Positions 2,977-54,235 of a DNA stretch of 64,000 nucleotides are shown piece after piece (the stretch's first letter is position 1; every line of letters starts with the position of its first letter). The position numbers were made by a program, and so were the translations under genes. The notes beneath the pieces are model-generated. The model ran no database searches. It saw only the letters and a program-made list of their open reading frames with translations, and had not been told where the DNA came from. Source of the stretch: Ignavibacteria bacterium (GTDB lineage Bacteria > Bacteroidota > Ignavibacteria > Kapaibacteriales > Kapaibacteriaceae); assembly GCA_016707005.1 (NCBI GenBank), contig JADJIQ010000005.1, positions 460,585 through 524,584 on the forward strand, read 5' to 3'.

Positions 2977-2979
2977 TTC

Positions 2980-3055
2980 GCGAATAGCGAATAGCGAATA
3001 GCGAATAGCGAATAGCGAATAGCGAATAGCGAATAGCGAATAGCGAATAGCGAAT
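2980..3055. repeat. Tandem heptamer array (GCGAATA) of about 11 copies, immediately after the dnaK stop.
   Basis: The sequence shows the perfect tandem run gcgaatagcgaatagcgaata.... The same heptamer appears in both orientations at 58595-58745. Confidence 0.9.
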
Positions 3056-4063: not shown

Positions 4064-4109
4064 AGAAGTCCAATATGCTACTAGAAATCCACGAAATCTG
4101 CCATGAACC

Positions 4110-4152
4110 CCGTAACTCTGTAACTCCGTATCTCCGTATCTCCGTATCTCTG
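4110..4152. repeat. Tandem octamer array of CCGTAACT/CCGTATCT-type units, about 5 copies.
   Basis: The sequence reads ccgtaactctgtaactccgtatctccgtatctccgtatctctg. It lies between the hydrolase start and the next gene. Confidence 0.8.
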
Positions 4153-6266: not shown

Positions 6267-6423
6267 CCATGTAACCCCGTAACCATGTAACACCGTAACC
6301 ATGTAACACCGTAACCCCGCCACATCCCAACACCGGGCGAGGCGGGGCCTCGCCCCTACGCCGTAACCCCGTAACCATGTAACCCCGTATCTCCGTATCT
6401 CCGTATCTCGGTATCTTCCCGAT
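6267..6423. repeat. Octamer tandem repeat array (CCGTAACC/ATGTAACA/CCGTATCT units) with an embedded GC-rich hairpin.
   Basis: About 16 octamer units flank the perfect 9-bp palindrome gggcgaggc-ggg-gcctcgccc at 6339-6359, which is terminator-like for the upstream plus-strand gene. Confidence 0.85.
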
Positions 6424-12320: not shown

Positions 12321-12366
12321 CCCTATCTAACATTCTAACACTCTAACCCTCTAGCACTCTAACGCA
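12318..12366. repeat. Short tandem octamer array of CTAACNNT units between convergent genes.
   Basis: The sequence reads ctaaccctatctaacattctaacactctaaccctctagcactctaacgc. Confidence 0.6.
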
Positions 12367-12676
12367 CCTTCACCGTCTTAATTGTGTTCGTTTGCTTCCC
12401 ATCAGACACAACAACGAGATACATTCCTTGTGCCCAATCTGCACAGTCGACCACATACTCCTGTCGCCCTTCAATAGGGCGGTATCGTGGAAGAAGGTCA
12501 ACAAGGCGAACACCGCTTGTAGATACAACTTCGAGCTGTTTAACATCTTGTTCTGAACCGCGCATTACTGAAACCGAAACAATGAGTGTTCCGTCAAACG
12601 TTCTAGGCTGTGCATCAACTGCGATACCCGATTGAAATACCGTCATTGCCACGAGTATTTGCGTAATGAACTGCAT
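12359..12676 (-). CDS. Small ORF encoding only a signal-peptide-like N-terminus plus a T9SS C-terminal sorting domain.
   Basis: The C-terminal 60 aa (GVRLVDLLP...AQGMYLVVVSDGKQTNTIKTVKVR) is a textbook CTD. Its ATG overlaps the stop of the upstream 830-aa gene (TAATG). Confidence 0.5.
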   Translation of the reverse strand: MQFITQILVAMTVFQSGIAVDAQPRTFDGTLIVSVSVMRGSEQDVKQLEVVSTSGVRLVDLLPRYRPIEGRQEYVVDCADWAQGMYLVVVSDGKQTNTIKTVKVR

Positions 12677-15129: not shown

Positions 15130-15155
15130 CGGGCTGACGCAAGCTTTTAGGCACA

Positions 15156-15875
15156 TCATGGTGCACAATCCGGATCTGTGTTACAACATTCAAGCCTCCT
15201 CGGGCAACTTTCAATAAGGAAGCATGGCTCGTAGCAGGATGAGTTAGAATAATCACATTCATTATAATCTGAAACAAAGCAACAGCCATTCGCAGCCCTC
15301 TCCCAGCCAGTCTCAATAATACAACAGCCATCGCCGCACCTCTCAATGCAATTGGTGGTGCTATTGAAACTCACACATTTGGGGAAGATCACACTCCAGC
15401 AGTAAATCGATCCCGTTGCCAATGGCACGTTTGCACCTAGGTAGCCAGGATTCTTACACGGATCAAACCTGCACAGAATTGCCTCAAACACTAGCTTGAC
15501 GTCCAAAGGGGAGGGAGGTGGATCTATAAAACACACCTTTGTGATGTGTGTGTATTGATTCATTTGCAGGTTGGAACAGAGACCAGGTAGCAATTGACCA
15601 ATTCCAGGCCTTGTTAGACAACCAAAAATCTCAATCTCATAATCACGGCCATCAATGCAGATCGTCAACTGACCCATTGAGGCAGGTTCATCACAATCAC
15701 AGGCACTTGTCATCGGAGATTCTACGGCAGATCTGATCCCTAGCCCAACTACACTTAATGCGCCTGGTTGGCTATGCCATGCGGCGGGGGGGGTAATAGA
15801 ATACGCCGTCATTATGCACGACGTAGCAATGAATACGGCCAGAGTAGCTCTGGCTATTACATGAAACCCTTTCAT
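15156..15875 (-). CDS. Cysteine-rich secreted hypothetical protein, about 240 aa with 30 or more Cys.
   Basis: It has a signal peptide (MKGFHVIARATLAVFIATSC) and dense CxC, CC and CxxC spacing. A GGAGG-like SD and a TAnnTTTG-type promoter lie upstream. Confidence 0.55.
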   Translation of the reverse strand: MKGFHVIARATLAVFIATSCIMTAYSITPPAAWHSQPGALSVVGLGIRSAVESPMTSACDCDEPASMGQLTICIDGRDYEIEIFGCLTRPGIGQLLPGLCSNLQMNQYTHITKVCFIDPPPSPLDVKLVFEAILCRFDPCKNPGYLGANVPLATGSIYCWSVIFPKCVSFNSTTNCIERCGDGCCIIETGWERAANGCCFVSDYNECDYSNSSCYEPCFLIESCPRRLECCNTDPDCAP

Positions 15876-15987
15876 GGGTCCCTCCTCAATAAAGTAGAAA
15901 ATGTATAAACCGCGTTCAGCGGCATCTATCAATAAATTTCTAGGGTAGGCAAATACAAAATAGAAAAAACTCGATTCCATCAAACAC

Positions 15988-17058
15988 CTAATTCTCCAAC
16001 ACAAACGATATCTCCGTCCCCCTGCCCACCCCGCTGTCTACTGCTATCGGCGCATGATGCGCTTCGAGAATATGCTTCACGATCGCTAGACCCAGACCGG
16101 TGCCGCCAACGGCTCGCGAGCGGTCTTTGTCAACGCGGTAGAACCGCTCAAAGATGCGTGGGAGTGACTCTTCGGGAATGCCGATGCCTGTGTCCCGAAC
16201 GCTTATCCGCAGGGTAGTGTCAACATGTTTTGTGCTCACGTAGACATCTCCACCATCAACATTGTATTTGATGGCATTCTCAAGGAGATTGGTCATCACC
16301 TGCGTGAGACGTTCTTTATCGCCGTACACCGTTGAGTTCTCTGCGATGTCACAGTGCACGGTAACGTTGCGCTGCGCAGCGCGGATCTCCGTAGTGTGAA
16401 CGATGTCGCGCAGGAGTTCTCCGATATCGAAATAGCGGAAGGAGAACTTGAGCTCACCGCTCTCGATCCGAGAGATATCGATAAGGTCGCTCAACAGAGC
16501 ATTGAGACGGAGAGCATTGTTGTAGGCTTTTTCGAGGAACTGCAGCGACACCTGCGGATCGTCCATTGCACCATCGAGCAACGTCTCCAGATATCCCTGC
16601 ACACTGAAGATCGGAGTGCGGAGTTCGTGAGAAACGTTGGCAACGAATTCCGAGCGGACGCGTTCGAGTCGACGCATTTCGTCGATGTCCTTCGCTGCCT
16701 TGTGTGCAAGTCTGTTGATCGCATCAGCAACACGGACAACATCAAGCAATGCGTTCTTGCCGAGTTCGATCCTACCGCTCACGGCACCGTCAGTGATGGC
16801 ATGTGTGATCTCGATGATCCGATCAAGGGGCTCAACGATCCTTGTACGTTGGGACCGCAGGAAGATCCAGACACATGCCGCGCCCCCTCCCGAAACAAGG
16901 AGAATGAAGAGGAGGATCCGAGGTGCACCGATGCCGGAAACGTCTGTTCCGGTAATTGCCAATACCACAAGAGCTGCGAGGTTCACGCCGACCAATGAAA
17001 GGGTCAGCCAGAACATCGAAAACCGAGTTATCGTGGGTCTAATTGACGTTGGCGCCAT
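15988..17058 (-). CDS. Sensor histidine kinase with 2 TM helices and HisKA/HATPase domains.
   Basis: The H-box SHELRTP, N-box NLLENAIKY, DTGIGIP and GGTGLGLAIVK motifs are present. Confidence 0.85.
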   Translation of the reverse strand: MAPTSIRPTITRFSMFWLTLSLVGVNLAALVVLAITGTDVSGIGAPRILLFILLVSGGGAACVWIFLRSQRTRIVEPLDRIIEITHAITDGAVSGRIELGKNALLDVVRVADAINRLAHKAAKDIDEMRRLERVRSEFVANVSHELRTPIFSVQGYLETLLDGAMDDPQVSLQFLEKAYNNALRLNALLSDLIDISRIESGELKFSFRYFDIGELLRDIVHTTEIRAAQRNVTVHCDIAENSTVYGDKERLTQVMTNLLENAIKYNVDGGDVYVSTKHVDTTLRISVRDTGIGIPEESLPRIFERFYRVDKDRSRAVGGTGLGLAIVKHILEAHHAPIAVDSGVGRGTEISFVLEN

Positions 17059-21413: not shown

Positions 21414-23531
21414 ATGATGGATCGACGATATGCCCACCTCTTGTGGGCTTTTTTCATTGCGACAACGATCGTTAGTGCGCAGACCCCGAAGCGCGATACG
21501 CTTCGAACACGCCACGTAACCGATAGTCTCCGTACGTATCTCAAGTCACAGGTTGTTGTGACCGGGACGCGCAATGAAGTGCGTCTCAAAGACTCACCCG
21601 TTCGTGTTGAGGTGATCGGCAAGGAACGGATCTCCACAACGGCAATGACGGACATCGGAGATCTCCTCCGTGAGCAAGCCGGTATTGTGATCACCGGTGC
21701 CGTACGAAACGGGATACAGATGAATGGCCTTGGCCCTGACTACACACTCATCCTGATCGATGGACAGCCCGTAGTAGGACGTGTGGCCGGTGTTGTAGAC
21801 CTCTCTCGTATCTCTGTTGGGAATGTAGAGCGCGTTGAGGTAGTGAAGGGGCCAATGAGCAGTATGTATGGAAGTGACGCCCTGGCCGGCGTTGTGAACA
21901 TCATCACCAAACGTCCGGCCAACGGATTCAATGGGACCGTCATGGTTCAGGGCGTTACAAGAGGCCCCCTCGAAACTCGTATTGAAGGTGGCTGGGGCAG
22001 TGATTCGATAGAAGTCTCGGGATTCCTTGATTACAAGAACCAACCGCAGTTCTCACTCCCGCTTGATACAATGTCCATTCCGTATGCGGGGTTTCAGGAT
22101 GGCACGCTGCACGGCAAGTTTCAATGGAAGTTTGCCAAGGGGTGGACCACTCGTGCTTGGCTCAGACTTTTTGGGTCGGAGACGCGCGGATCATTCATTG
22201 AAAGTGTTGCCGGACAGATCGCACAAAACACAGGATCGGTGCAACAGTGGGACGTTTCCAGTACGGTTGGCGTAGAGTACCAAAGCGGTCGCGCACGACT
22301 CACCATGAACGCCTACGGGTCTTCCTATAACGAACGATACAACTTCGATTCTTCTCAGGGGGCTGCTGGTTCAACTGATGATCTGTTGCGGCGCATTGGT
22401 CGACTCTATGCGCAATACGACGTGCAGCTTGGAGCTGCCAACAGACTCACGATGGGCGGAGAGTTCCTCTACGATGACATCGATGGATCTCGATACAGAG
22501 ACTCAACCGGCGCACATCCGTTCTATCGCACCTATGTGGCGTTCGCCCAATGGGAGGGAATGCCAACGGATTGGATCTCGTATGTGGTGAGTGGACGATT
22601 TGACGGCAACAGTGTCTTTGGTTCGGCGCTGAGTCCGCGCCTTTCGTTGTTATGGAAGCCAGGCGAGAACCTACGCGCGTCCGGATCCATCGGTACTGGA
22701 TTCAAAGCCCCCGACTTCCGTCAGCTCTACGTAACGTTCTCCAACCGGCTTGCCGGTGCAGGTTATGACCTGATCGGTGCCGAGCGCCTGGGCAATACGT
22801 TGGAACCCGAACGCAGCGTCTCGTATGACCTCAGTCTACGCTATGAAGATGGTCAGCGTCAGCTCACGGATGAGCTATCCCTTCTCTACAGTGCTGAGAT
22901 CCGCGCCTTCCGAAACGATCTGCGAAACCTGATTGAGTTTTACTTCGTGGAGTCTGTTGAGGGCAGAGATGTGTACTCGTATCGCAACATCTCGCAGGCC
23001 TATACACAAGGGATCGAGTGCAACCTCCGTCTCGCACTTGCCATCGACAACGTTGGCGTCTTCAGTGCACTCGGCGGATATCAATTCCTCGATGCAAAGG
23101 ATGTGCAGGTTCTTGAGGCGATCGACAATGGTGAAGCCGGCACCATCGATGGACTTCTCACGCGCGAAGACTACCATGGACTGTGGGGTCGGTCTCAGAA
23201 CAGCGGATCGCTCCGCATTCAGTACGACTCTCCCGACCATGCTTGGAGCACCAACGTTCGCTTTCAATTCATCGGACGGTACGGCGATGAATCTCTGGAC
23301 AAGAACGGTATCGTGATCTCTGATCCGCCGCGCAAGGTCCTCGACCGCGATGACGAATTCGTTCAAGGCTACGTTGTTGTCAACCTTGCTCTCACACGCT
23401 CATTCATGCTCAACGAACAACGTCTGCTCATCGGTACCGGCATCAATAACCTGCTCGATGAATTCCACCCAACACTCATTCCGGGATTGGTTGGGCGGCA
23501 GTTCTACGTGCAGGCAAGCATCAGCTTTTAG
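21414..23531 (+). CDS. TonB-dependent outer-membrane receptor.
   Basis: It has a signal peptide, a plug domain (VVVTGTR, GPMSSMYGSDALAGVVNIITK), a beta-barrel and a terminal aromatic residue (...ASISF). The start is placed at the MMDRRY methionine. Confidence 0.85.
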   Translation: MMDRRYAHLLWAFFIATTIVSAQTPKRDTLRTRHVTDSLRTYLKSQVVVTGTRNEVRLKDSPVRVEVIGKERISTTAMTDIGDLLREQAGIVITGAVRNGIQMNGLGPDYTLILIDGQPVVGRVAGVVDLSRISVGNVERVEVVKGPMSSMYGSDALAGVVNIITKRPANGFNGTVMVQGVTRGPLETRIEGGWGSDSIEVSGFLDYKNQPQFSLPLDTMSIPYAGFQDGTLHGKFQWKFAKGWTTRAWLRLFGSETRGSFIESVAGQIAQNTGSVQQWDVSSTVGVEYQSGRARLTMNAYGSSYNERYNFDSSQGAAGSTDDLLRRIGRLYAQYDVQLGAANRLTMGGEFLYDDIDGSRYRDSTGAHPFYRTYVAFAQWEGMPTDWISYVVSGRFDGNSVFGSALSPRLSLLWKPGENLRASGSIGTGFKAPDFRQLYVTFSNRLAGAGYDLIGAERLGNTLEPERSVSYDLSLRYEDGQRQLTDELSLLYSAEIRAFRNDLRNLIEFYFVESVEGRDVYSYRNISQAYTQGIECNLRLALAIDNVGVFSALGGYQFLDAKDVQVLEAIDNGEAGTIDGLLTREDYHGLWGRSQNSGSLRIQYDSPDHAWSTNVRFQFIGRYGDESLDKNGIVISDPPRKVLDRDDEFVQGYVVVNLALTRSFMLNEQRLLIGTGINNLLDEFHPTLIPGLVGRQFYVQASISF

Positions 23532-23622
23532 TTACGTAGTTACTCAGTTACATAGTTACTCAGTTACGTAGAAACTTTGATACTCTGTAACTCTGTAACT
23601 GCGTAACTGAGTAACTGCGAGT
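23530..23622. repeat. Inverted octamer-repeat blocks (GTTACNNA on the left, GTAACTNN on the right) forming a long imperfect hairpin that exactly fills the gap between two convergent stop codons.
   Basis: The left arm gttacgtagttactcagttacatagttactcagttacgtag is complementary to the right arm tctgtaactctgtaactgcgtaactgagtaactgcgag. It is a probable bidirectional terminator. Confidence 0.8.
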
Positions 23623-24104
23623 TAGACCGGCTTAAATCCTTCAAACGCCTGCAAGCACTTGTTGCAGTAGTGAAGGGAGCGGCAGAGAGTTGGTCCGAAC
23701 GGGCTCTTGAGCGTGGTGTCACGTGAACCGCAGAATGGGCAGGCCACGTTGTTCAGCACATCAAGCTTCAGTGTGAGCGTATCAAAGGGCTCTGGTGGAG
23801 CAAGGCCATGTTTTAGCAGAGCGGCTTTACCCGCTTCGGTGAGGCGATTGGTAGTCCATGGTTGATCAAAGGTGACACTTACCGTCACGTTCGAAACACC
23901 AAGCCCCCTAACAGCCGATTCAACGTCATTACGCATCACAGTGATCGCCGGACATCCAACGAATGTTGGCGTCATGGTAACGTGGACCTCGTCATCACTA
24001 CGCACATCAACGTTTGTGATGATCCCCATGTCCACGAGAGAGATCGTTGGGATCTCCGGATCGTGCACATTGAGAAGTGCATCATAAACATCTTGCTGCG
24101 TCAT
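23622..24104 (-). CDS. paaD: Phenylacetyl-CoA 1,2-epoxidase subunit PaaD (DUF59/MIP18-like, with a C-terminal Zn ribbon).
   Basis: It has VHDPEIP and IVDMGII-type motifs and a C-terminal CPFCGS...CNKC. Confidence 0.8.
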   Translation of the reverse strand: MTQQDVYDALLNVHDPEIPTISLVDMGIITNVDVRSDDEVHVTMTPTFVGCPAITVMRNDVESAVRGLGVSNVTVSVTFDQPWTTNRLTEAGKAALLKHGLAPPEPFDTLTLKLDVLNNVACPFCGSRDTTLKSPFGPTLCRSLHYCNKCLQAFEGFKPV

Positions 24105-24105
24105 C

Positions 24106-24861
24106 TCACCACTCCGCAGACGGATCGATGCGATAGACTTCCGTCATCTCATCAAGAAGCGGTTTGAGGTGTTCTGTATGGTGTCCCTTACGTCCACCAT
24201 ACACTGGAGTGACATTTGTCGGGATCACGAGTGTTGACGTTTGCAGGAGTTCCTCAACAAGTTCAACCCAGCGTTGCTGAGCGGCTACTTCTCCAATGAA
24301 GATCCCATCGGCTATCAATGCATCCTCATGTTCTCCGGGCTCGAACATTCCCAACGCATATGGCCATGCGACATTCAGGGCCGACTGCATTCGTGCATGG
24401 GACTCTTCGTTGCCATTGGCACCAAGTTGTACCATCCATGTTTGAGCATGATAGAGATGGTACTTCAGTTCGCCGTGGATCTTGCGGGCAAGGTTGGCAA
24501 GGGGCTCTACAGAGCTCTGAACCAATGCCGTCCAACGAACATACTCTGCCACGTCAAAGAGGAAGTGTCGTACGAGTGAGAAGTCATATTCACCATTCGG
24601 CAACTCGACGAAATGCGAGCAGCGCATCTTGAGTTCATCGCGCATGAAGGCTGCGGTGTCCGCATCCGGCCCTCCGCCAAGTTCGTGCATGATGGTGTAG
24701 AGAGCTTGAGCGTGACCGAGTTTGTCTTGCGCGATCGAAGAAAATGCAATGTCTTCTTCCAAGAGAGGACCAAGTCCGGTCCACTCCGAATGCCTGTGCG
24801 CAAGGATCAGTTCGTCATCCGCCATGCGGTAACAAAGGTCGTTCAGTGCGTTCGTATTCAT
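24106..24861 (-). CDS. paaC: Phenylacetyl-CoA 1,2-epoxidase structural subunit PaaC.
   Basis: The C-terminus GGRKGHHTEHLKPLLDEMTEVYR matches E. coli PaaC (GGKKGLHTEHLGPMLAEMQYLQR). Length is 251 aa. Confidence 0.85.
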   Translation of the reverse strand: MNTNALNDLCYRMADDELILAHRHSEWTGLGPLLEEDIAFSSIAQDKLGHAQALYTIMHELGGGPDADTAAFMRDELKMRCSHFVELPNGEYDFSLVRHFLFDVAEYVRWTALVQSSVEPLANLARKIHGELKYHLYHAQTWMVQLGANGNEESHARMQSALNVAWPYALGMFEPGEHEDALIADGIFIGEVAAQQRWVELVEELLQTSTLVIPTNVTPVYGGRKGHHTEHLKPLLDEMTEVYRIDPSAEW

Positions 24862-25253
24862 TCGGCAGAGCCTTCCGTATTCTGTTTCTTAAAGGCTTCC
24901 ACCTTGTTGCGGACCATGTAGGCCGACACTTCCCGGTATTTCTTCTCGGGAGTTGTGGCGAACACATCGGCATCTTCTGCAGACATCGTGAACACGTCTC
25001 TTGTGTTCACCACCCACAGATTCACCGTTTGGCCACGCCGAGCATACTGCTCCTTTGCCAAAAGGAGAGCTAGCTCGTGGTTGGGTGCGTGAACACATCC
25101 AACGTGCATGTGGTGTGCACCACTCTTGCCCTGGTGGAAGACCTCAAAGGTCTGAAACTGATCGAGCTCCGGTTTTGGTTCCAGCGGGTCTTTCCGCTCC
25201 GGATCGATCTGCATCCGCGTAACACGCGGGTCGAGGGATATGATCGTCGCCAT
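24858..25253 (-). CDS. paaB: Phenylacetyl-CoA 1,2-epoxidase subunit PaaB.
   Basis: The FEVFHQGKSGAHHMHVGCVHAPN...LWVV segment resembles E. coli PaaB (YEVFVRGKQGLSHRHVGSLHAPD...VWVV). It overlaps paaC by 4 nt. Confidence 0.85.
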   Translation of the reverse strand: MATIISLDPRVTRMQIDPERKDPLEPKPELDQFQTFEVFHQGKSGAHHMHVGCVHAPNHELALLLAKEQYARRGQTVNLWVVNTRDVFTMSAEDADVFATTPEKKYREVSAYMVRNKVEAFKKQNTEGSAE

Positions 25254-25331
25254 GAGGGCAAATTTACGAACTTTTCAGCCCCCATTGTCCTGATTAAGAC
25301 AGACGGTATGAGAGGTAGAGAGAGTAGACGG

Positions 25332-25537
25332 GACGTTGACGTTATGACGGTATGACGGTATGACGGTATGACGGTTATGACGTTATGACTGGTAACTAAG
25401 TAACTGCGTAACTGAGTAACTGAGTAACTGAGTAACTAAGTAACTGCGTAACTCTGTAACTGAGTAACTGCGTAACTGCGTAACTCTGTAACTGCGTAAC
25501 TAGTAACTGCGTAACTAGTAACTAGTAACTAGTAACT
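25332..25537. repeat. Largest tandem octamer array: 4 GACGGTAT units, then about 20 GTAACTNN units, degenerating into GTAACTA heptamers.
   Basis: It is read directly from the sequence. It occupies the position upstream of paaB where paaA would be expected. Its 3' part encodes the last 7 codons and stop of the gene at 25515..27818. Confidence 0.9.
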
Positions 25538-27818
25538 GACTTACCCCCACCATCTCCCCATTGGCCATTACCGTAAGCGAATAGGGTCCTGTTGGCAGAC
25601 CGTTCACGTTGAGGGTGATGTCTATTTCACCGTCCGGAACGCTGCGGGCAGACGAGTAGCCCATCACGCGTCCGGCAACATCATGCAGGGTGGCTGTTAG
25701 GTCCGCAGAGGGCCCCTGAACGTGTTTTACTGTGATGGTTAGAGAAGTAGAGGCCGGAACAGGAAAAGGGGCTGAGAGTCGCCACGAGGAGCCCGCACTG
25801 ATCACGAGTGCGGCCACACCTACATCGCAGCGAGATGAGCCGGTGAACGCGATGGGAAGCCCCTTACTTTGAATTGGGATCTTCCCAACAGAGCAGGTGT
25901 CGGGGAGGGCAAGAGTATCTTCTACAAGGCCTGTATCAATGGCCGAGGCACAGAGGGTGAGCTCGCCGATCTCACCGGGAGCGATGTTGATCGGGAATTG
26001 CGCTTGGGGCATCGAGAAGTAGACGTTGCCCACGAAGAACGGACGGGAGATCACCAGCGGTTCGTTGGTTGAGATGTTTCTGATGCGGACTGTGCGGCAA
26101 GCCAGGGTACCTACGTTGTGATCGTTGACGATGATCACGCCGCCGTCGCCGGGGCTGAATTGCACGTTCGCCTTGTTGCGGGTATCGAGCTTGACAACAC
26201 GCGTGGTGTCCGACGTGCCAATACAGCCATTGTCGTCCACCACCGTCACCACATAATCGCCACCCTGATCCGTTGTGATCGAGCTGCTTGTTTCGCCGGT
26301 ATTCCACTCATACTTGCGGAAACCGGGAGGTGCCGTTAGAGTGATCACGTCATCGAGACAGATCGTGAGTGACCGGTTTGCTTGGATTGTTGGTCTAGGA
26401 CGGGGGTTAACGGTTACGGTGATCTCCGACGTGGCGGTGCAGCCGGCGGAGTCGAGGGTTACACAGGTGTACTTCCCACTTGTCTTCACCACCGTGGACT
26501 GTGTTTGGTCACCATTGGACCACAACCAGGAGTTGATCGGCCCATCCACACTGAGGGTGATAGAATCTCCCTCACAGACAGTCTTCGGGATGGAGGTGAT
26601 ACGCGGTTCGAATGTGCTTTTCAAAGCAACTCGTATGGTATCCTTGGATTCGGCACATGTTGCTCTGTCATAGACGGAAACGATGTACCTGCCAGGTTCA
26701 GTCAGGTACCTGCCCGGGGACTTTACGCCATCGCTCCATGAATAATTGTCAACGGCAGAACGCGCTTCTACAAAGGCACTATCTCCCTTGCAGATCATGA
26801 TAACCTCATCAGCGGGGACGATGGCAACCTTTGGTCCGGCTGCATTGAAGTTACTTCTGTACACACCCTGACCAACGGCCCAGCCGAGCGTGTCGTTGAT
26901 GAAGAAGATATCGTCGATGTTTCCTCGGATACCACAATTACGGTTGGTCCAAGACTCCCCCGCATCGTCGGTATACAACACAGCCCTATCGTTGCCCACG
27001 CCCCATCCGCGACGTTCATCGAGGAGGAAACTGCCGAACATGTTTGCGCCGGTCTGATATTCTCGCCAAGATCGACCAGCATCGTTGCTATATCTAAGAG
27101 AACCGATTCCGCTGGCATTACCATCACACGTGTTACCGGCTGTTGGGATCAGCATGGCATTGCCGGAAATGGCGAGCTCCTCTGACCAGACCTTGCTGCC
27201 TGTTCGGGAGTAGATGCTCCATGACCGACCGAAGTCTGTTGTGCGCCACAGAACTCCGCTGCTCACAGCGAATCCACTTCCGTTACGGAAGATGATCCCG
27301 TCACTCAGTCCGCTCATCGGCTCGGTCCCATAGGACACCGTCCAGCTCTGTCCGGCATCGGTCGTCCGGTAGAATGCCTGTATACCTGATGCGCAGCCAC
27401 CAACGAAATACAGACCTTCGTTCTGATTGATCCAGTAGGAGCCCCATCCCTTTTCAAAATTGGGATCGAAGGGTGAGATGTCTCGCCAGGTTATCCCGCC
27501 GTCATCGCTGCGAAAGACGCCGGCATGACCTGACACGTAGCCGATCGAAGGCGTCAAGAACTGGACATATTCGAGAAATGCCCCTGGGATAGTAGAACCG
27601 CGCCACGTGGCACCGCCATCCGTGGTACGAATGATCTCACCATTCATCCCGCACACCCAGCCTAGATTCTGATTGCCGGGCAGGAAATAGACGTCGAGAT
27701 AATACCCTTGATCATAGGGAGGTGGCAACAATGCTTCCTTCCATTGCGCAGCAAGCGGTGCCGTTAGCGAACAGCAGAGCAAGACCAATGTTGCGATATG
27801 ACCAAAGGTTCTCTTCAT
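25515..27818 (-). CDS. T9SS-secreted BNR/Asp-box beta-propeller protein with Ig-like domains and a CTD.
   Basis: It has a signal peptide (LVLLCCSLTAPLAAQ), Asp-boxes (TTDGGATW, SDDGGITW, TTDAGQSW, TTDFGRSW, SNDAGRSW, TDDAGESW) and a CTD-like tail. Confidence 0.75.
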   Translation of the reverse strand: MKRTFGHIATLVLLCCSLTAPLAAQWKEALLPPPYDQGYYLDVYFLPGNQNLGWVCGMNGEIIRTTDGGATWRGSTIPGAFLEYVQFLTPSIGYVSGHAGVFRSDDGGITWRDISPFDPNFEKGWGSYWINQNEGLYFVGGCASGIQAFYRTTDAGQSWTVSYGTEPMSGLSDGIIFRNGSGFAVSSGVLWRTTDFGRSWSIYSRTGSKVWSEELAISGNAMLIPTAGNTCDGNASGIGSLRYSNDAGRSWREYQTGANMFGSFLLDERRGWGVGNDRAVLYTDDAGESWTNRNCGIRGNIDDIFFINDTLGWAVGQGVYRSNFNAAGPKVAIVPADEVIMICKGDSAFVEARSAVDNYSWSDGVKSPGRYLTEPGRYIVSVYDRATCAESKDTIRVALKSTFEPRITSIPKTVCEGDSITLSVDGPINSWLWSNGDQTQSTVVKTSGKYTCVTLDSAGCTATSEITVTVNPRPRPTIQANRSLTICLDDVITLTAPPGFRKYEWNTGETSSSITTDQGGDYVVTVVDDNGCIGTSDTTRVVKLDTRNKANVQFSPGDGGVIIVNDHNVGTLACRTVRIRNISTNEPLVISRPFFVGNVYFSMPQAQFPINIAPGEIGELTLCASAIDTGLVEDTLALPDTCSVGKIPIQSKGLPIAFTGSSRCDVGVAALVISAGSSWRLSAPFPVPASTSLTITVKHVQGPSADLTATLHDVAGRVMGYSSARSVPDGEIDITLNVNGLPTGPYSLTVMANGEMVGVSQLLVTSY

Positions 27819-28790: not shown

Positions 28791-31700
28791 TTAACGACGG
28801 ACCAGACGGACCACCCAACGTTCGCTACCCGTGGTGACGACCACGTTGTAGACACCGTTGGCGAGGATACCCATGTCGACCGACGTGCGGAATGCACCGC
28901 CGTTTGCGGCCTCATTGAGTGTCATCACCAGCTCGCCGACTGCATTGACAAGTTCAATGCGAACCGGACCAGCTTGTGTGATCGTTGTTTCGATAGAGAA
29001 CTGACCATTCGATGGATTCGGGAAGACGCGGAGTTCGGCTTGACGGCCGGCTACTACATCTTCATCGACATCCGTGAGGATAACATCGAATGCTTCAGAG
29101 ACCGAGGCGCAGGTGTTGTTATCTGCGATCTCAACACGGTACGAGCCTGGCAGAGCCACTGTGTACGTCTTGGCCGTAGCTCCAGCGATCATTGTTCCGT
29201 TGCGGAACCACTGCCACGACTGAGCAACTGCTGAGTTCGCGGTGAGAACATCACCCATGCGGGAGATCGTAGGAATAACAGGCAAGCTGTTCACCGTTAC
29301 CACTGTCTTAGTTGAGTTAGCAGGGCACGACGTGTTGTTCGTGACCGTAACCCAGAACTCGCCACCATTTTGCACCGTGATCGTGCGGCCAGTTGCGCCG
29401 TTCGACCAGATGTATGATGCGTAGCCAGCAGGTGCAGTAAGTGTTACAGCACCACCTTCGCAGAACGTGGTTGGGCCGTTTGCTGTGATGACAGGAGGAG
29501 CGACAGGAGCGACCGTGATACCAACGGTATCGGACGAACCAACGCAACCATTCACGTCAACAACTTGGCAATAGACCGTATCCGTTTGACGGATGATGAT
29601 CGAGCGAGCTGTGCCGTAATTCGTGCCTGAAGTAGATACCCATGTGTACGATACGAAGCCAGCCGGTGCGCGTACTTCAACGCTGTCACCTGAGCAGAGA
29701 TTCGCAGAACCAATGAGTGTAAGAACCGGTGCAGGTGTTGGATTCACAACTACGTCAACTTCCGTTGATGTGCCTGTGCAGCCATTGTTATCAGCAACAG
29801 TTACAGTGTACGAGCCAGATTGTGTGACCACGATCGATTGCGTTTGAGCGCCGTTCGACCAGAGGTACGCATTGAATCCGGAAGGAGCTGTAAGTGTTAC
29901 GCTACCACCTTCACAGAACGTTGTTGGAGCATTGATCGCGATGATCGGCAGCGTGCTTGGGAATACGTTCACTTGGATCGTATCCGAGCTATTAGAGCAA
30001 CCGTTTTCATCCGTCACTGTGCACCAGTACTTGCCCGTTGTGCGAACAACGATGCTACGTGCTGTTTCACCTGTGTTCCAGATGTACGAAGAGAAGCCGA
30101 TCGGTGCGCTGAGAGTCACATCTCCACCTTGGCAGAATGTCGTCTGGCCAGAAGCCGTCAGAACTGCGTTTGGAAGAGCGTTGACTGTAACGTTGATCGT
30201 ATTCAGAACCGTGCAAAGGAAGCCATTCACTTCTGTAACCGTCAGTGTAGCAGCACCCGGGAGTGTCCACTCAACTGTTACGTTCGGTGTGCCTTGACCA
30301 GCACGGATGATGTTGCCACCAGAAACTGCCCAGCTATAGGTGTTACCAGGGATACCCGGTGTGCTATAGTTCTGAAGCGAATTCTGGCAAGCAGACCTTG
30401 GACCAGAAATGACTGGGTTCGGAAGCGGATTGATCGTTACAGACAGCGATCCAGTTGCTGAGCAACCGAAGCTCGATGTATGTGTGACCGTGAGGTTACC
30501 CGTGATCGGTGTAAGACCAGAGTTAGCCCACTGAACACCGATCGTGAGTGTTCCTTGACCCGAGACGATAACACCGTTTGTTACAGTCCAGCTTGGCTGA
30601 AGGCTACCTGAGCCCGCTGTGATCACAGGGATGCTCGATGTATACGTTGCCGTGTTGATGGTTGCTGGCGAATCTGAAAGATCCGTTGCGCAGACCGGTG
30701 ATGGACCTGTGATCGATGGTGTTGGAGGAATTGGACGGATTGTGACGTTGAGCGTGTTCACACCGAAGCATGTGCCTGCAGGGAGAACATCAGCAACATC
30801 TTCACGAACGCTAACCGTAGCAGCTGTCGTGTTCGGCCAAACCGGAGCACTCCACGTTACACGGATCGTGTTCGGAGCAAGGTTCACATACGTGCCGCCA
30901 ACAACGGTCCATGTATATGCATTACCCGATACGAATGGTGTTGTGTAGTCTTGAACGCTGTTGCCACATGGATTGACTTGACCTGTAACGACCGGCGTTG
31001 GCGTCGGACGGATCAGGATCGTGTCAGTATCCGTTGTGATACAGTCAGAACCAGGAACAGTCTCGGTGCAAGCGATGGTACCGTTACCGGCAGCACCCCA
31101 AAGAACCGTGATCTGATTTGTGTTGCTACCAGCAGTGATCGTACCACCTGTTACAACCCACTGGAAGACATTTCCAGGTGTTGGTGTTACAGAGTAGACG
31201 TGTGTGCTGTTGTTGCAAACGATACCCGGACGGCGTGTGATCGGATTACCGTAGCCCGTTGCAGACTGGATGTCTGGCGTTGGGATCGGGTTAACGCGGA
31301 TGTTCACCGTTGTTGTTGTGAAGCAGAAGCCACCAAGAGCTGTTTCTGTCACACTCATTGTGTGAAGACCAGGCTGGATCCAGCGAACTGTGATCGTGTT
31401 GCTTGTTGGATATCCTGCGATCGTAGCGAAGGCGTTCGTTGGTGTGATCACCCAGTTATAGGTGCTACCTGGAACGGCTGGCGTAGAATACGTGTGTTCC
31501 TTGTTGATACAGACAACTGTCGAACCTGTGATGTTCGGTGTTGGCGTGTAGCTCACAGCAACATTCTGCGTAACAGTCTTGAAGCACGGCGTTCCCGTCG
31601 TGGTTTCTGTTACTGTCAGCGTGTTGTTGCCGATCGTCTGCCACGTTACCGAAACAGTGTTAGCTGTTGCTGTACCGTTGATAACACCACCTGTTGCAGT

Positions 31701-34700
31701 CCAGAGATACGAGCTCGTGCCAACGAATGGCGTTGAGTACGTGATCGTTTGACCTTGGCAAGCTTGGTTTACAGCACCACCCGGTGTTACGCGGGAGATG
31801 GCTGTTGCTGTTGGTGTTTGCTGAACAGTGACGTTCAGTGTTGCACTGCGGAAGCAGTTACCAGAGACGTTTGTCTGCGTGACGCCAACAGCATATGTAC
31901 CAGCGTTATTCCATGTGACGGTTACGCTCGAACCAGTGATGGAGGAGACGATCGTGCGATCGGCTGCCGTACCACCAATTGTCCAGTTGTACGTGTGACC
32001 AGGAACTGCTGTTACTGAATATGTCTGCGTTGTACCAGAGCAAACTGGTGTGCCACCAGAGATGACTGGGTTTGGCTGCTCTTCAACCGAAACGTTGAGC
32101 GATGTTGTGCCGACGCAACCGGTGTTAGCCGTTGCTGTCTCAACAACTGTCAGCGTTTGATTTCCGAGTGCTGTCCAGTTCACTGTCACTGCATTTGCAT
32201 TGTTGACACCAGTGATCGTACCGCCCGTTACTGTCCAGAGGTACGTTGTACCGCCAAGGTTCGGAGTGGAGTACGTGATCGTCTCATCCAAGCAAGCTTG
32301 GTTAAGAAGACCAGCTGGTGAAGTACGTGTAATGACCGGAGTTGGCTTAGCAGTTACTGTAACGTTCGCTGTAGTTGTGACGACACAAAGACCAGCTGTT
32401 TCCGTTACCGTAAGTGTGCGTGTACCGGCTGTGAGCCAGAGCACTGTGATCGTGTTGTTCGTTGTACCAGAAGCGATCGTACGATCCGTTGCTGTGCCCG
32501 AAACCGTCCAAGCATATGTGCTGCCAGCTTGTGCCGGTGTGCTATACACTTCTGTTGAGTTCGAACATGCATTGAGATTGCCGGAGATCGTTGGCGTTGG
32601 CATGCGTGTGACAGCAACATTCTGAGTCACAGTCTTGAAGCACGGCGTTCCCGTCGTGGTCTCCGTCACTGTGATCGTGTTGTTACCAACTGTCTGCCAT
32701 GTTACCGAGACAACGTTTCCTGTAGCCGAACCGTTGATCGATCCACCAACTACTGTCCAGAGATATGAGCTTGCGCCGTTCGCTGGTGTTGAGTAGGAGA
32801 TCGTTTCACCGTTACATGCTTGATTGAGCGGAGTACCAGAGACACGCGAGATCGCAGTGGCTGTTGGTGTCTGCTGAACCGTCACAACAAGATTTGCTGT
32901 GCGTGAGCAGTTACCGGAGTTGTTCGTTTGAAGGACCGACACCGTGTAGGAACCGGCGTTGTTCCACGTTACGGACATGCTGCTACCAGTTACACTCGTG
33001 GTGATCGTGCGATCTGCTGCCAGACCGGTGATCGACCAGTTATATGTGTGACCAGCGACGGCTGTTACCGAATACGTTTGTGTTGAACCGGAGCAAACAG
33101 GTGTTCCACCTGAGATAACCGGATTTGGCTGCTCTTCAACCGAAACGCTGAGCGAAGTTGTTCCGACGCAACCGGTGTTAACCGTTGATGTCTCTACAAC
33201 CGAAAGCGTTTGGTTTCCGATAGCTGTCCAGTTGATGGTTACAGCGTTCGCATTGTTTACACCAGTGATCGTTCCACCTGTTACCGTCCAGAGGTACGTT
33301 GTGCTACCACCGTTTGGTGTGGAATACGTGATCGTCTCATCCAAGCAAGCTTGGTTAAGAAGACCGAGCGGAGATACACGTGTGATGACCGGAGCTGGCT
33401 TAGCAGTTACTGTGACGTTCGCCGTGGCCGTTGCTGTGCAAAGACCAGCGGTTTCAATCACTGTAAGAGTGCGAGTGCCGGCTGTGAGCCATTGAACTGT
33501 GATCGAGTTGTTTGTCAAGCCCGAGGTCGTGCGATCTGCAACTGTACCCGACACAGTCCAAGCATACGTGCTACCGGCCACTGCTGGTGTGCTATATGTT
33601 TCGGCGCTATTCGAGCATGCGTTGAGATTGCCCGTGATCGATGGTGCAGGCATGTACGTTACAGCAACGTTGAGCGTAGAAGTAGCCGAGCAAAGACCCG
33701 TTGCTTCCTTCTCAACAACTGTAAGTGTCTGCGTGCCGATCGTTGTCCAGCGAACTTGAACTGCGTTCGTTGTTGCGCCAGAAACGATCGTTGCACCAGT
33801 TACCGTCCACTGATACGTTGCTCCAATGTTGTTAGCAACAGAGTAGGCAACGTTACCTGGGTTTGTGACCGCGTTGTATGCGCACACTTGTGTTGGACCA
33901 GTGATGGTCTGCACTTGTGGCTGATAACGGATCGTGACGAGCACTGTGGCCGAACCTGTGCAACCGCTCAGAGTATTCGTTTCTGTCACTGTAACGTTTG
34001 ACGACAGTGTAGAACCAACACCTGGATTGGTGAACTTGATCGTGAGGGCATTAGTACCCGAGCCACTTACGATCGATCCGTTAGAGAAGCTCCACGAATA
34101 CGTGTTGCCCACAACGTTCGGCGTGCTGTATGTAGCGATCTGCTCACCGCACACGTTTGTCGGACCAGTGATGGCCGGCGCAGGTGGGTTCGTGATCGTT
34201 ACGTTCTGTGATACAGTGGTTGTGCACTGTGATGATGTGTGCCACTTAGCAAGAGTGATCGTGCCTGTACCTACAGTGTTCCACTTGACATAGACAGTAG
34301 TGCCATTGTCCGGACCAGGATTGTTACCTGTTACATCCGAGATAATGCCGCTTGTAGCTGTCCACTTGTACGAGAACGTACCAGCAGTTGGATCTGTCTG
34401 ACCATACTGGATCACTTGGTTAAGGCATGAGCCACCTGTTGCACCACCTGGGGTGAGACGCGTGATCGTCGGAGCCGGTGTTGGAACGATCGTGATCGTG
34501 CGTGTTACCGTCTTCGAGCAAGTTGTAGCGTTTGTTGTTTCAACAAGCTGGAGCGTGAACGAGTTGCCACCGCCGATAGCGCCCGTAAGGACCGTTGCTG
34601 TTGCCTGATTGGCACCAGCTGTGATCGTTGCGTTACTACCGCCGAGCATTGTCCATGCATAGCTGTTAGCAGGAGCATTGTTTGCTGTGCTGTACGATGC

Positions 34701-37700
34701 AACGGCATTGTCGCACACTACGCCTGGGCCATTGATGACCGGGTTCGGCGTTGGGTTAACGTTGACGTTGAGAGTTGTACGGTTGAGGCAACCAACAACA
34801 CTTGTTTGTGTAAGCGTGATCGTAGCATTCGGGTTAGGAGTTGTACCCCATGTTACCGTGATGCTATTGCCATTCACTGCTGTGATCGTCGATGGGTTAC
34901 CAACAACACCTGTGCCTGTTGCACCACCTGGTGTTGTGATCGTTCCACCAACAACATCCCACTTATACGTGTCGCCCGTGAAGAGCGTGGCCGTGTAGAT
35001 CGAAGTCGACGTTGGTGAACCAGTTGAATTCTGGCAAACCTGCGTTGGACCTGTGATCACTGGCTGTGGTTGTGGGTACACCGTCACGTCATACGTGAGG
35101 TTCGTCACGCAACCACCGTGTGACGGTGGAAGTGTTACAGCAAGCTGGATCTGACCGATGTTCGTGCCGCCCGTAGCGTGCCACTCTGTAACGATCGATG
35201 TTGTGTTTTGACCGCTGCGGATCACACCGACAACAGGACCAGTTGGCATGTTCCAGAGATACGTTGTTCCGGCAGGGAACACGCAACCAGGTGCACGTGC
35301 TACTGTGTACGTTGTGAGGTGCTCTTCGAAGCCACCATAGATACATGCCGTTGTTGGACCGCTGATCGTAGCATCTGCAACAGTTGGGTTGATCGTCACC
35401 GTCACAACCGCTGTGTCAGGGCATCCGAAGACGTTCGTTTCGATCATGCGGACCTTCACAGGCAATGGATTGTATACACCATTGCATGAAAGAAGGTGGG
35501 TTCCCCATGTTGTGACGAACGGATTAAGCGTACCAAAGCCTGTGTTGTTTCCAACGAGTGGAGTTGTACCTGTTGGAGGATTTGTTGTTACCGGAATCTC
35601 TACGGTGTTGTCGACAACACCAAGGATCTTCCAATCATACGTTGCAGCCCATCCACCGAAGGAAGGAGTTGCAGCCGTATATGTACCAACCGATGGACCA
35701 CATGCTGGGTTTGAACCCGAGAATGAAGCAACCGGCTTAGGATTGACGGTAACGTCCGTACCCGGAGCATCTGATACAGGGCAAGCTGAAGCTGGGATCG
35801 GACGAGCATAAACTCCTGCACCGGTGCGCAGTTGAGCGCGCACTTCGAAGTTTACGATCGTTGGAACGGCTGGGTTTGTCGGAAGAACGCTGAGAGCTGG
35901 AATCGAGATCGGACCGATCGCGCCACCAGTACCATTGAAGGTAACAGCAGGAGCCATCGAAACACCGTTGCGGAGGATCTCATACGTTACACCGTCTTGT
36001 GAACCAGCCTGGGTGAAGATCACCGGCTGTTCCCAACAAACTGGGTTCGGTGTGTAGCTATTCGCTTGAACAAGCGGAAGAGCGAAGACCGTAGCTGTTG
36101 GATGCTGCGTGAGGATCACGAAGCAAGCAGGCGGATTCGTGTTCGACGTTGCAACTACTTCATACTCGTAGTTCGCAGCGGCAAGCAGTGGATAACCACC
36201 AACTGGGTTTGTGTTGTCGGCAAGGAGGAGTGCTCCACCTGTACCTACAGCGCTAATACCAGTTGACACGAATGCTGCCGGTGGCAATGCTGCACCGGTT
36301 GCATTGTCGCGGATCTGACGACGGAAGAGTTCATACGTTACCCAGTTCTCAGATCCAGCTACTGTAACGTTTACGAGGTCACCAAAGCACACAGGCGTTG
36401 GAGCGATCGTTACAGCAAGAGCTGCATTCGGGATCTGATGAACATTAACTGTGGCATCACCTGTCGAAACGATATACGGTCCGCATACCGGAGCAAGATT
36501 AGATGCTACAACACGGAACAGATACACCGTAGGTGCAGGAGCAACAGTTGTGAAGGCAAGATCTGCTGTAGGAACAACAAAGTTCAGAGCAGCACCAGTA
36601 CCATTTTGAGCAGCAACCGTTGCGTTAGCCCATGTACCACCACCGTTGGTTGAACGTTGGACTTGATACGAGTAACCAACTTGCGAGTTTGCAAGCGTGA
36701 GTGGTGCCGTTTGGGCACCCGTGTTGCAGATGTCTTGTGGTGTAACACCAAGAGCATACTGAGTTGGGATAACATTGAGTGTGACGTTGTAGTCAGGTGT
36801 CGTTGCACCGCAACCACCAGGGTGCACTTCCGTGACCTTGATCTTTGCAGGTGACGCACCATAGAATACAACACGCACGCGTGATGCATTCAATGTGCCC
36901 GGAAGAAGCTGGCTAGCAACCGGAGCTACGTTACCAGCGATCGTTGTGTATGCACCACCATTGTTCGTTGAGTACGCAACGATATAACCATTCGATATCT
37001 GCCACGAGTACGTGTTGCCAAGTACTTGTGGAGTAGCGAAGTCATATGTGTACGTGAACGGACCAGCGTGTGGCATGCCAACCGGATCTACCAAGTTCTG
37101 GCAGACAACGTTTGGATTCAAGCCAGCAGTAGGAACATTGATAACGATCGATGGAGTTGGAACCGGGTCAACTACGAAGTTTGTCACTGTTGACGTTCCG
37201 CAACCCGAAATAGCATCAACCCCTGTCACTGTAATTGACTTCGGACCTGCACCACCAAGATTTGTGATCTGACGTGTGAGGTCGGGAGCTGGTCCAGCCG
37301 CATTCAGAACTATGCCACCACCTGGAACCCAAACATAGTTAACTCCCGGTTGGCCTGCCCCACCGTTTGTTGCCACTGCAACATTGATCGGTACCGGTGT
37401 ATTGACGCAGAATGGAAGAACCGGAGCAAATGTGATCGGAGCCGGTGCAGGACGTGCATAAAAGGTTGTGTTGGTTGAACCAACCAAGCTGACGCAGCCT
37501 GCTGCCGATGTGAGTTGTGCATTGATCGTCACGACAACGCTCTGTGGTACAAGTGCCGCGTTTTGTGGCAATTGACCCCATGTGATCGTACGTGCGACGG
37601 CACCAACTGGCTGAGCAAAAGGACTGCCAGTTACAACTGTTCCAACCGGAGCGCCAGTTACGTTAACTGCAAGCGAACCAGCCTGAGCCGTTGTGATCGT

Positions 37701-40745: not shown

Positions 40746-41217
40746 ACGATCCTCCAAATGAGACTTTGAAATACTGTTACTCTTACTGTTATTCTTCATA
40801 GTTGACGTGGTCTGTTCCCCATTCACAAACACCAATTGGCGCCCGAGGCGCCTTGATTTTTCAGATTGTGCATTGTCGCGTAGAGTCATAATGTCCTTCC
40901 GAACCGTTGGATTGAAACGGCACGGCGCACAACACCCCCGTTGCCAGAGGCGTGTACATCGTCGCGAAAATAGGTCGACGGAGCGGTTCCACCAAACACG
41001 ACTTTGCCACAAAGCATCATATATGCCATGGGACTAGCGTTTTTCGCGAATATGTTCTGCGTCGTCTGAGTCATTGTCTTCGATCAGCGTTGTTTTTATG
41101 TGTTGCTACGTGGTTCTACGTAGACAAACCTGTGAAACAGATTCCACACCACCAAGGACATTGGACCAGATCACGGTGGGTCACCCCCCGAAATCCAGCC
41201 CACCTTGATGGCAGGAG

Positions 41218-54070: not shown

Positions 54071-54235
54071 GGTTTTTCAGTTACGGAGTTTGAGAGATAC
54101 GGAGATACGGAGATACGGGGTTACGGGGTTCGTCATCTCGAGCGAAGTCGAGAGACGAAACTCATCGGTCGTAGTTCCCAAACATGTTGAGGACTACGAC
54201 CGGCCCCGACGTGCGGGGCCGTGTAGTGTCGTCGC
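54071..54235 (-). promoter_or_regulatory. Structured intercistronic region between atpE and atpF: an octamer array (GATACGGA/GTTACGGG) plus two stable hairpins.
   Basis: The repeat run gttacggagtttgagagatacggagatacggagatacggggttacgggg is followed by stems ggtcgtagt...actacgacc and ggccccg...cggggcc. This may be an mRNA processing or stability element that sets c-subunit stoichiometry. Confidence 0.5.

Follow-up and report, generated by a model that had tools for sequence, protein, structure and literature searches.

A simple-sequence repeat array with 7-8-nt units supplies the tail codons of a predicted secreted protein next to paaBCD in an Ignavibacteria bacterium

Intergenic direct repeats of the heptamer TAACTGA have been described in Beggiatoaceae, Cyanobacteria and five Bacteroidetes, in arrays of up to 43 copies with other heptamers mixed in (MacGregor 2015, Front Microbiol, PMC4679880). 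The corresponding spacers of close relatives lack these arrays, insertions or deletions between strains come in 7-nt steps, and no role has been established for them, RNA-binding proteins and rearrangement having been put forward (PMC4679880). Long simple-sequence repeats with units of 5-11 nt, heptamers being the commonest, were linked to slippage by Mrazek et al. 2007 (as cited in PMC4679880; see also PMC4692102). Here, we characterize a related array in a 64,000-nt stretch of an Ignavibacteria bacterium genome (contig JADJIQ010000005.1, positions 460,585 to 524,584; hereafter the window), located between a gene for a predicted secreted protein of 767 amino acids (aa) and paaB, the first gene of a paaBCD operon. 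The array is most likely a long simple-sequence repeat (unit 7-8 nt) specific to its lineage, one of many in Kapaibacteria/Ignavibacteria-like spacers, and it extends into the coding end of the upstream gene.

In the window, 261 nt separate the 767-aa gene from paaB, and the gap contains two adjoining period-8 arrays (Tandem Repeats Finder, TRF). The existence of an array here, proposed in an initial annotation made from the sequence alone, was borne out: the array at 25388-25539 (19.6 copies, score 185) is the top-scoring one of the window. Parsed on the minus strand, the coding strand of both flanking genes, this sub-array 1 (25390..25537) comprises 19 head-to-tail units, each consisting of AGTTAC (GTAACT on the plus strand) and a linker of 1-2 nt. 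The hexamer is identical in all 19 contiguous units, while the linkers vary (GC in six units, T and TC in four each, AG and TT in two each, C in one); the first three units, read on the minus strand, are AGTTACT 7-mers. Sub-array 2 (25337..25394, minus strand), which lies closer to the paaB promoter, has the plus-strand unit TGACGGTA at period 8 (7.0 copies, 88% matches, score 84), or about seven (A/C)CGTCATA units in the sense direction. It is followed on its 3' side by a CT-rich stretch and then by a short conserved block that runs up to the paaB start codon. The fourfold GACGGTAT repeat of the initial annotation is better described as three exact units plus three to four variants. Within the window, GTAACTNNGTAACT occurs 22 times against 0.00 expected (100 shuffles) and GTAACT 51 times against 17.5 +/- 3.8 expected, so that the focal array shows both the head-to-tail short unit and the excess over chance that define long simple-sequence repeats.

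Several other element types do not fit this anatomy. Folded as RNA, the focal spacer gains no stability over shuffled sequences (z = -0.48), which excludes a hairpin element at this site; the array is purely direct. A scan of the whole window found no Rfam family at gathering score. An array of clustered regularly interspaced short palindromic repeats (CRISPR) was rejected because the units are 7-8 nt long with 1-2-nt linkers, compared with CRISPR repeats of ~23-50 nt and their unique spacers. Readings as a transposon, as a miniature inverted-repeat transposable element (MITE) or as a small open reading frame (ORF) were rejected on anatomy alone.

Within the known class of long simple-sequence repeats, of which the focal array is a member, the TAACTGA-type intergenic repeats are its closest counterpart. 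Both consist of tandem short intergenic units; the plus-strand focal unit GTAACTGA contains TAACTGA, and the heptamers found at the same junction in two related loci, L001 and L002 (TAACTAG or TAACTCG), have a core in common with it. As with the TAACTGA repeats, the spread is sporadic and lineage-specific, strains differ by whole units and several unit types coexist in one genome: the four genomes that carry the array have 19, ~13, 11 and 6 core units, and no array is present at this spacer in loci L003-L040. There are also clear differences. The period is 8 in 14 of the 19 focal units, TAACTGA itself appears in five of the 19, and the 7-mer units read TAACTAG. TAACTGA repeats usually lie in forward orientation a few nucleotides upstream of a start codon, whereas the focal TAACTGA is on the plus strand and both neighbouring genes are on the minus strand. 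As it lacks both the exact heptamer and the forward orientation, the focal array is not a TAACTGA array proper. It begins inside the 3' end of the upstream gene, stops ~135 nt before the paaB ATG and, unlike TAACTGA repeats, supplies seven codons and the stop of a coding sequence. Its Kapaibacteria-like host lineage is missing from the published TAACTGA list.

A further comparison is with the short tandemly repeated repetitive (STRR) heptamers of cyanobacteria, which Mazel and colleagues reportedly described in 1990 as genome-wide intergenic arrays of unresolved function. Those, too, are lineage-bound intergenic arrays; they differ from the focal one in unit sequence and phylum, and we know of no report of an overlap with coding ends. 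With the long simple-sequence repeats of Mrazek et al., as these are summarized in PMC4679880, the focal array shares head-to-tail repetition beyond chance, a 7-8-nt unit, a mostly non-coding location and a scattered phylogenetic distribution. The class is purely descriptive: it predicts neither anchoring at stop codons, nor an invariant core with variable linkers, nor hairpins formed by inverted arrays, all of which are encountered below.

The upstream edge of the array lies within the 767-aa gene (25515..27818, minus strand). The ORF ends in GTA AGT CAG TTA CTA GTT ACT AGT TAC TAG, translated as VSQLLVTSY and stop, and its last seven codons and stop (QLLVTSY and TAG; 25515..25538, minus strand) are made by three AGTTACT units plus the AG of a fourth. 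Translation and codon layout thus agree with the initial annotation, which had placed these codons inside the array. Three successive AGTTACT units carry TAG in all three reading frames, so translation would end within seven codons whatever the frame of entry.

Comparison with orthologues indicates what the units replaced. Repeat-free orthologues close a hydrophobic strand with a basic residue, in the pattern hydrophobic-x-hydrophobic-hydrophobic-x-R, and end in ...SYPVIVVR, ...SSTILVHR or ...SCVVTILR. The array-bearing genomes (the window, L081, L001 and L002) end instead in QLLVTSY, QVMITNY or PVMITSY, coded by AGTTACT/ATTACTA units. The tail reads CAG TTA CTA GTT ACT AGT TAC TAG in the window and identically in L081, CAG GTG ATG ATT ACT AAT TAC TAG in L001 and CCG GTG ATG ATT ACT AGT TAC TAG in L002. 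Where L001 and L002 have GTGATGA, the window has TTACTAG, so the repeat reaches one 7-nt unit deeper into the gene with length unchanged, which is the product expected of unit homogenization creeping into a coding sequence. In the alignment, QLLVTSY falls opposite PVIVVR or TILVHR, with one extra residue; overall protein length is kept (767-768 aa, compared with ~765), and the repeat-coded residues preserve the hydrophobic pattern and stay within the last predicted strand. A ...LLVTSY tail without repeats was sought among the orthologues and not found, every such tail coming with repeats. These alignments support the earlier proposal that repeat expansion reshaped the coding 3' end and, with it, the native arginine-terminated tail of the 767-aa protein. 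We also considered whether the unit was seeded from native Val-Thr codons: the repeat-free relative L004 has GTT ACT at the matching tail position. L003, L005 and L009 do not, and AGTTAC arrays also occur in the neighbouring spacer; the idea is kept as a weak lead only.

The protein that bears this tail has a predicted signal peptide, a Ycf48/BNR-like beta-propeller (Pfam PSII_BNR, 6.5e-13), Ig-like domains and a C-terminal beta-sandwich, a layout drawn from Pfam, an AlphaFold model and more than 100 full-length orthologues. The beta-sandwich is likely a type-A sorting domain of the type IX secretion system (T9SS). The initial annotation had called this a T9SS gene. Several orthologues (P0002, P0020 and others) carry Por_Secre_tail (PF18962), and the match of the 767-aa protein itself is sub-threshold (22.7 bits against a cut-off of 27; 1.2e-4), spanning model positions 2-68 of 75 and leaving the last strand unaligned. 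An NCBIfam scan did not report TIGR04183 for this protein. The AlphaFold model, built on a 60-sequence alignment, has a mean predicted local distance difference test score (pLDDT) of 91.2. Its C-terminal domain contains strands at 692-699, 706-712, 718-725, 731-737, 744-752 and 755-764 (block pLDDT 85-94), and the last of these takes in the repeat-coded residues 761-764. The model thus presents a beta-sandwich whose final strand reaches the C-terminus, as in T9SS type-A domains, which comprise ~70-100 residues. The gene is under strong purifying selection, with a ratio of nonsynonymous to synonymous substitution rates (dN/dS) of 0.04-0.07. During type IX secretion, the C-terminal domain serves as an export signal and is then removed by cleavage, and substitution of its tail may therefore be cheap.

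Eighty loci around PaaC homologues were fetched and six window proteins were mapped onto them; the closest matches are metagenome-assembled genomes (MAGs) labelled Ignavibacteria or Candidatus Kapaibacterium. The junction array occurs in the window, L081, L001 and L002, and in none of L003-L040 at the spacer between the 767-aa gene and paaB. L081 (GCA_016707835.1) belongs to the same species as the window, with 96-98% nucleotide identity in the flanking DNA. Its junction has ~13 AGTTAC units and five AGTCACTT units in 180 nt, compared with 19 units and seven CGTCATA units in the window, the AGTCACTT units taking the place of sub-array 2. The first three units, the QLLVTSY tail with its stop and the promoter block are the same in both strains. 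L001 has 11 seven-mers and seven ACGTCATA units at the junction, and L002 has six and five. Both keep arrays with the same core at the same three spacers as the window, as 7-mers and in other copy numbers, at a synonymous divergence (dS) from the window of 0.4-3.0, which is largely saturated. By TRF, 7-8-nt arrays number ~11 in the window, five each in L001 and L002 and one in L081; L003-L040 together hold a single such array, in L019, and heptamer arrays of other kinds were seen in a few unrelated Bacteroidota loci. From this distribution, the array most likely arose after its lineage split from repeat-free relatives.

Two observations on these assemblies are recorded here. In L081, the array in the spacer between paaD and the convergent TonB-dependent receptor gene is almost missing, the repeat-bearing spacer being down to a few bases, and the receptor (14124-16244) is called as two ORFs of 240 and 451 aa, compared with one 734-aa gene; the split could mean that the gene is frameshifted or has become a pseudogene, or that the inverted arrays collapsed during assembly. 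In addition, the Kapaibacteria-type synteny contigs L002, L017, L019-L021, L040 and L044 carry titles naming unrelated taxa (Didemnitutus, Patescibacteria, Hyphomicrobiales, Bradyrhizobiaceae, Bifidobacteriaceae) and are probably mis-binned or mislabelled MAGs.

On its downstream side, the array faces the predicted promoter of paaB. A candidate -7 box, TAAATTTG (25259..25266, minus strand), separated from the paaB ATG by 5 nt on the upstream side, matches TAnnTTTG, the Bacteroidota-type -7 promoter box. It sits inside the block GGGCTGAAAAGTTCGTAAATTTG, which is kept in relatives with and without the array (eight loci compared). A sigma-70 promoter scan of 23400-25700 returned no site in the focal spacer, and a scan of the same region for intrinsic terminators (GC-rich hairpin plus U tract) found no terminator-like site. 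Between the AGTTAC units and the promoter block, sub-array 2 and the CT-rich stretch of the sense transcript together form a C-rich, G-poor tract (25302..25394, minus strand; C 0.37, G 0.12 over 93 nt). By composition, this tract is a candidate rut-like Rho-loading site, for which ~70-90 nt of C-rich, G-poor, unstructured RNA ahead of the release sites is typical. The C-rich half may thus act as a Rho-dependent terminator or insulator between two transcription units.

Taken together, these features are probably best explained by simple-sequence repeats that, driven by slippage, occupy the unconstrained DNA of a spacer as far as the functional boundary at either end. The arrays would grow, shrink and change unit type by replication slippage or unequal exchange, and loops of 7-8 nt would be expected to escape mismatch repair. 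Downstream, expansion would be limited by the paaB promoter, immediately before the paaB start codon. Upstream, unit homogenization would have crept into the coding sequence and overwritten the last ~7 codons together with the original stop. Such a change may have been tolerated for two reasons: three AGTTACT units stop any frame within seven codons, and the hydrophobic or beta-prone LLVT would still complete the last beta-strand of a cleavable sorting domain. Both slippage as the generating mechanism and the secretion system's acceptance of the new tail are inferred.

A number of points weigh against this explanation. Slippage, transcription across the array and secretion of the 767-aa protein are predictions here, and copy numbers taken from short-read metagenome assemblies may be unreliable. 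The core is invariant in all 19 focal units and in all nine units of a sister array described below, against eight linker forms. Were ~6 independent changes spread at random over 148 positions, the chance of all landing in the 34 linker positions would be ~1e-4; this gives a hint that the core is constrained, which purely neutral slippage would not lead one to expect. Core motifs also persist at three orthologous spacers despite a dS of 0.4-3.0. The slippage account leaves both the perfect conservation of the hexamer core and the persistence of the motifs unexplained.

The focal array is the largest of ~11 arrays of 7-8-nt units in the window, most of which begin at a stop codon. GCGAATA arrays follow dnaK and ddl, and a GTAACCNN array follows a second T9SS-tailed BNR gene (genes assigned by Pfam); a TCTAACNN array separates two convergent genes, and CCGTAACC and CCGTATCT arrays stand directly upstream of three start codons. 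The sister array (23529..23619, TRF) occupies the spacer between paaD and the TonB-dependent receptor gene and holds AGTTACNN in both orientations: five units follow the receptor stop, with TAG within the first unit, and four inverted units follow the paaD stop. The hexamer core is invariant in 9/9 units, the two halves fold into a long hairpin (z = -7.2 and -6.4), and L001 and L002 have the same inverted arrangement at this spacer, made of 7-mers. Inverted pairs of arrays (AGTTACNN against GTAACTNN, and GAATAGC against GCTATTC) at 23526-23626 and 58596-58740 form hairpins with z = -6.4 to -8.6 and are probably terminators built of repeat units. The second of these pairs lies between the co-directional ddl and PfkB kinase genes, with a short T run behind it. 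Downstream of dnaK, a classical hairpin with a T run comes after the GCGAATA array.

The anchoring of arrays at gene ends extends beyond the 767-aa gene. Among eight gene-end arrays, six hold the stop codon of the gene in their first, second or third unit, and stop codons lie inside array units at five other window genes and at the histidine-kinase gene of L001. The arrays that start at or hold the stop of the upstream gene lie at 2977-3055, 6254-6416, 12321-12363, 23529-23619 and 58606-58751 of the window and at 18860-18961 of L001. The stops concerned are those of the TonB-dependent receptor gene, ddl, the second T9SS-tailed BNR gene, whose tail VTP and stop are repeat-coded, and both genes of the convergent pair, for which the TCTAACNN array provides TAA to one gene and TAG on the other strand to its partner. 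In L001, the histidine kinase ends in VLEG and a stop within a GTGCTAGA array. At gene starts, composite arrays of CCGTAAC(C/T) and CCGTATCT stand in sense orientation at 4108-4150, 6361-6416 and 54094-54126, ahead of the genes at 4236 (plus strand) and 6424 (plus strand) and of the ATP synthase subunit b gene at 54070 (minus strand). Two of the three come within 7-25 nt of the ATG, and in this respect they resemble the start-codon-proximal TAACTGA repeats of Beggiatoaceae.

Metagenome contigs were also pattern-scanned for four AGTTACNN units. Among the matches listed, the arrays span a G+C content of 0.19-0.70 and mostly have a single linker type, and some supply a stop codon. A universal orientation rule for AGTTACNN was rejected on the same listed set of 128 arrays at 120 loci, in which 17 arrays after stops are sense and 25 antisense, and 12 before starts are sense and 17 antisense.

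Two further segments of the window deserve mention. The stretch 12359-16046, 3.7 kb long, is missing from L001 and L002 and encodes three ORFs (105, 830 and 282 aa) without a Pfam or PHROGs match. It is apparently inserted within a TCTAACNN/GTGTTAGA array, of which an intact part remains at 12321-12358; a degenerate remnant, GTGTTGGAGAATTAGGTGTTTGA, coincides with the end of the histidine-kinase gene at ~15985-16010. A 4073-aa ORF (28791-41012, minus strand), just upstream of the gene p277 and kept in the synteny block, contains repeats that resemble the Ig-like region of the 767-aa protein (residues ~330-545, 28-46% identity). Its L081 counterpart carries Por_Secre_tail, which makes it a giant predicted T9SS cargo.

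The features that slippage leaves unexplained could be accounted for if the arrays were functional cis-elements, serving as multivalent RNA or DNA binding platforms for a lineage-specific protein at gene ends, with roles in 3'-end formation, insulation of transcription units, mRNA stability or, for arrays upstream of starts, translation initiation. We regard this alternative as unlikely, though not negligible. An invariant AGTTAC with free 1-2-nt linkers is closer to a multi-site array than to a decaying microsatellite, and at orthologous spacers the window, L001 and L002 retain the same motifs although dS is 0.4-3. Within the lineage, AGTTAC follows the stops of three genes (the 767-aa gene, paaD and the TonB-dependent receptor gene) directly and in sense, CCGTATCT arrays are in sense just upstream of three start codons, and the promoter-proximal half of the focal array has the C-rich, G-poor composition of a Rho-loading site. 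Protein-binding roles have also been proposed for TAACTGA arrays (MacGregor 2015, PMC4679880). However, the 64 kb contain six or more unrelated unit families, each of which would need its own reader, and unit type and copy number shift between strains that are 96-98% identical (CGTCATA to AGTCACTT at the junction, and a nearly lost paaD/TonB array in L081). The 128 AGTTACNN metagenome arrays listed follow no orientation rule (17 sense and 25 antisense after stops), the within-lineage orientation sample amounts to two or three independent sites, and the focal array has neither a stable structure nor an Rfam match.

A broader form of this idea, which we consider more doubtful still, is that the 7-8-nt arrays are genome-wide gene-boundary elements whose stop-anchored cores (AGUUAC) are read by an oligomeric nucleic-acid-binding protein. 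If true, this protein would define mRNA 3' ends or insulate transcription units, and the inverted pairs would double as hairpin terminators. Nothing would then keep boundary arrays from overwriting the final codons of dispensable tails, such as those of cleavable T9SS sorting domains.

Phase-variable contingency loci built on simple-sequence repeats are known from, for example, Haemophilus and Moraxella (PMC12721329, PMC4679880), and the focal array resembles them as a hypermutable boundary tandem repeat with strain-variable copy number. A switch that alters paaBCD expression, or the C-terminus or secretion of the 767-aa protein, would also suit a repeat that overlaps a coding end with a period of 7-8, which is not a multiple of 3. 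Nevertheless, such a switch is very improbable here. Unlike in contingency loci, the repeat lies after the effective stop and upstream of the promoter, leaving frame and promoter geometry unaffected: the conserved promoter block is downstream of the array, so unit number does not change promoter spacing, and translation does not reach the units past the first TAG. The window and L081 have the same three leading 7-mers, with TAG in every frame, and the tail would change only with fewer than three 7-mers left. The difference between 19 and ~13 units leaves QLLVTSY, its stop and the promoter block as they are.

There is equally little to suggest that the array, or its length, is an artefact of assembling a MAG. 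A ~200-nt array with repeated 16-24-mers could collapse or inflate in short-read assembly, and many of the AGTTACNN metagenome arrays among the matches listed sit at contig ends. Against this, an array of the same family is present at the same junction in four independent assemblies, its degenerate units give unique k-mers, and the flanking genes are intact.

The genes downstream of the array are confirmed as paaB (24858..25253, minus strand; Pfam 85 bits against a cut-off of 27, with TIGR02157 at 74.7 bits, below its cut-off of 85.45), paaC (24106..24861, minus strand; TIGR02158, 250 bits) and paaD (23622..24104, minus strand; TIGR02159, 168 bits). They overlap or abut at 23622..25253 and form a tight operon, in agreement with the initial annotation. 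Their products share 93-99% amino-acid identity with those of L001 and L002, and a dN/dS of 0.02-0.03 indicates strong purifying selection. The three genes are encoded together as in the phenylacetyl-CoA epoxidase operon paaABC(D)E, and the adjacent upstream paaA is missing. Its absence, also noted initially, holds for the 64-kb window, in which tblastn with two bona fide PaaA proteins found no match, and within +/-10 kb of paaC in L001-L037, L039 and L040 (window plus 81 loci searched).

This arrangement is not confined to the array-bearing strains. The order giant protein, p277, 767-aa BNR gene, paaB, paaC, paaD and convergent TonB-dependent receptor is common to the window, L001-L037, L039 and L040, ~40 syntenic loci across which identity falls to ~63% for PaaC and ~39% for the 767-aa protein (L024). 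In the array-free loci read (L004, L005-L007, L009 and L029), paaB begins 20-90 nt from the 767-aa gene, leaving no room for a gene. Elsewhere, PaaA is 70-80% identical across Bacteroidota, and in the more distant loci L038 and L041-L080 its gene adjoins paaB on the upstream side or is close to it. Two other Kapabacteria genomes (L202 and L204), the two matches looked up from a database search with a Kapaibacterium PaaA, have a canonical paaABCD. Some Bacteroidia (L041, L049, L059) encode a T9SS-tailed protein between paaA and paaB, so interruption at this point is not unique to the Kapaibacteria-like clade. Because the gene order is common to ~40 loci, most of them array-free, comparative evidence indicates that the paaA-less junction is an old, clade-wide arrangement, ancestral to the array, whose repeats are confined to the youngest sub-lineage. 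The strong purifying selection on paaBCD suggests that a working PaaA partner is encoded elsewhere in the genome.

The proposal that the array replaces paaA, or marks the scar of a deletion or recombination that removed it from an ancestral paaABCD, draws on the adjacency of paaA and paaB in many Bacteroidota and other Kapabacteria, on the lack of paaA in the window and on the 3.7-kb insertion showing that arrays can be sites of rearrangement, and it fails, with a probability we consider negligible, because the junction is shared by ~40 mostly array-free loci, which makes the loss or relocation of paaA older than the array, and because selection on paaBCD implies a partner encoded elsewhere.

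For the biology of this group, the missing paaA should accordingly not be annotated as a recent deletion, and the array is no evidence for the loss of a catabolic gene; the whole Kapaibacteria-like clade keeps paaBCD under strong selection without an adjacent paaA. The array extends the TAACTGA-like repeat phenomenon to another phylum-level lineage and brings forward three features that functional hypotheses will have to explain: stop-codon anchoring, invariant cores with free linkers, and hairpins of inverted arrays. With a tail that appears reshaped by repeat units after the split from repeat-free relatives, the 767-aa gene offers a clear and comparatively dated case in which a conserved gene had its end overwritten, apparently without harm, by a hypervariable non-coding repeat.

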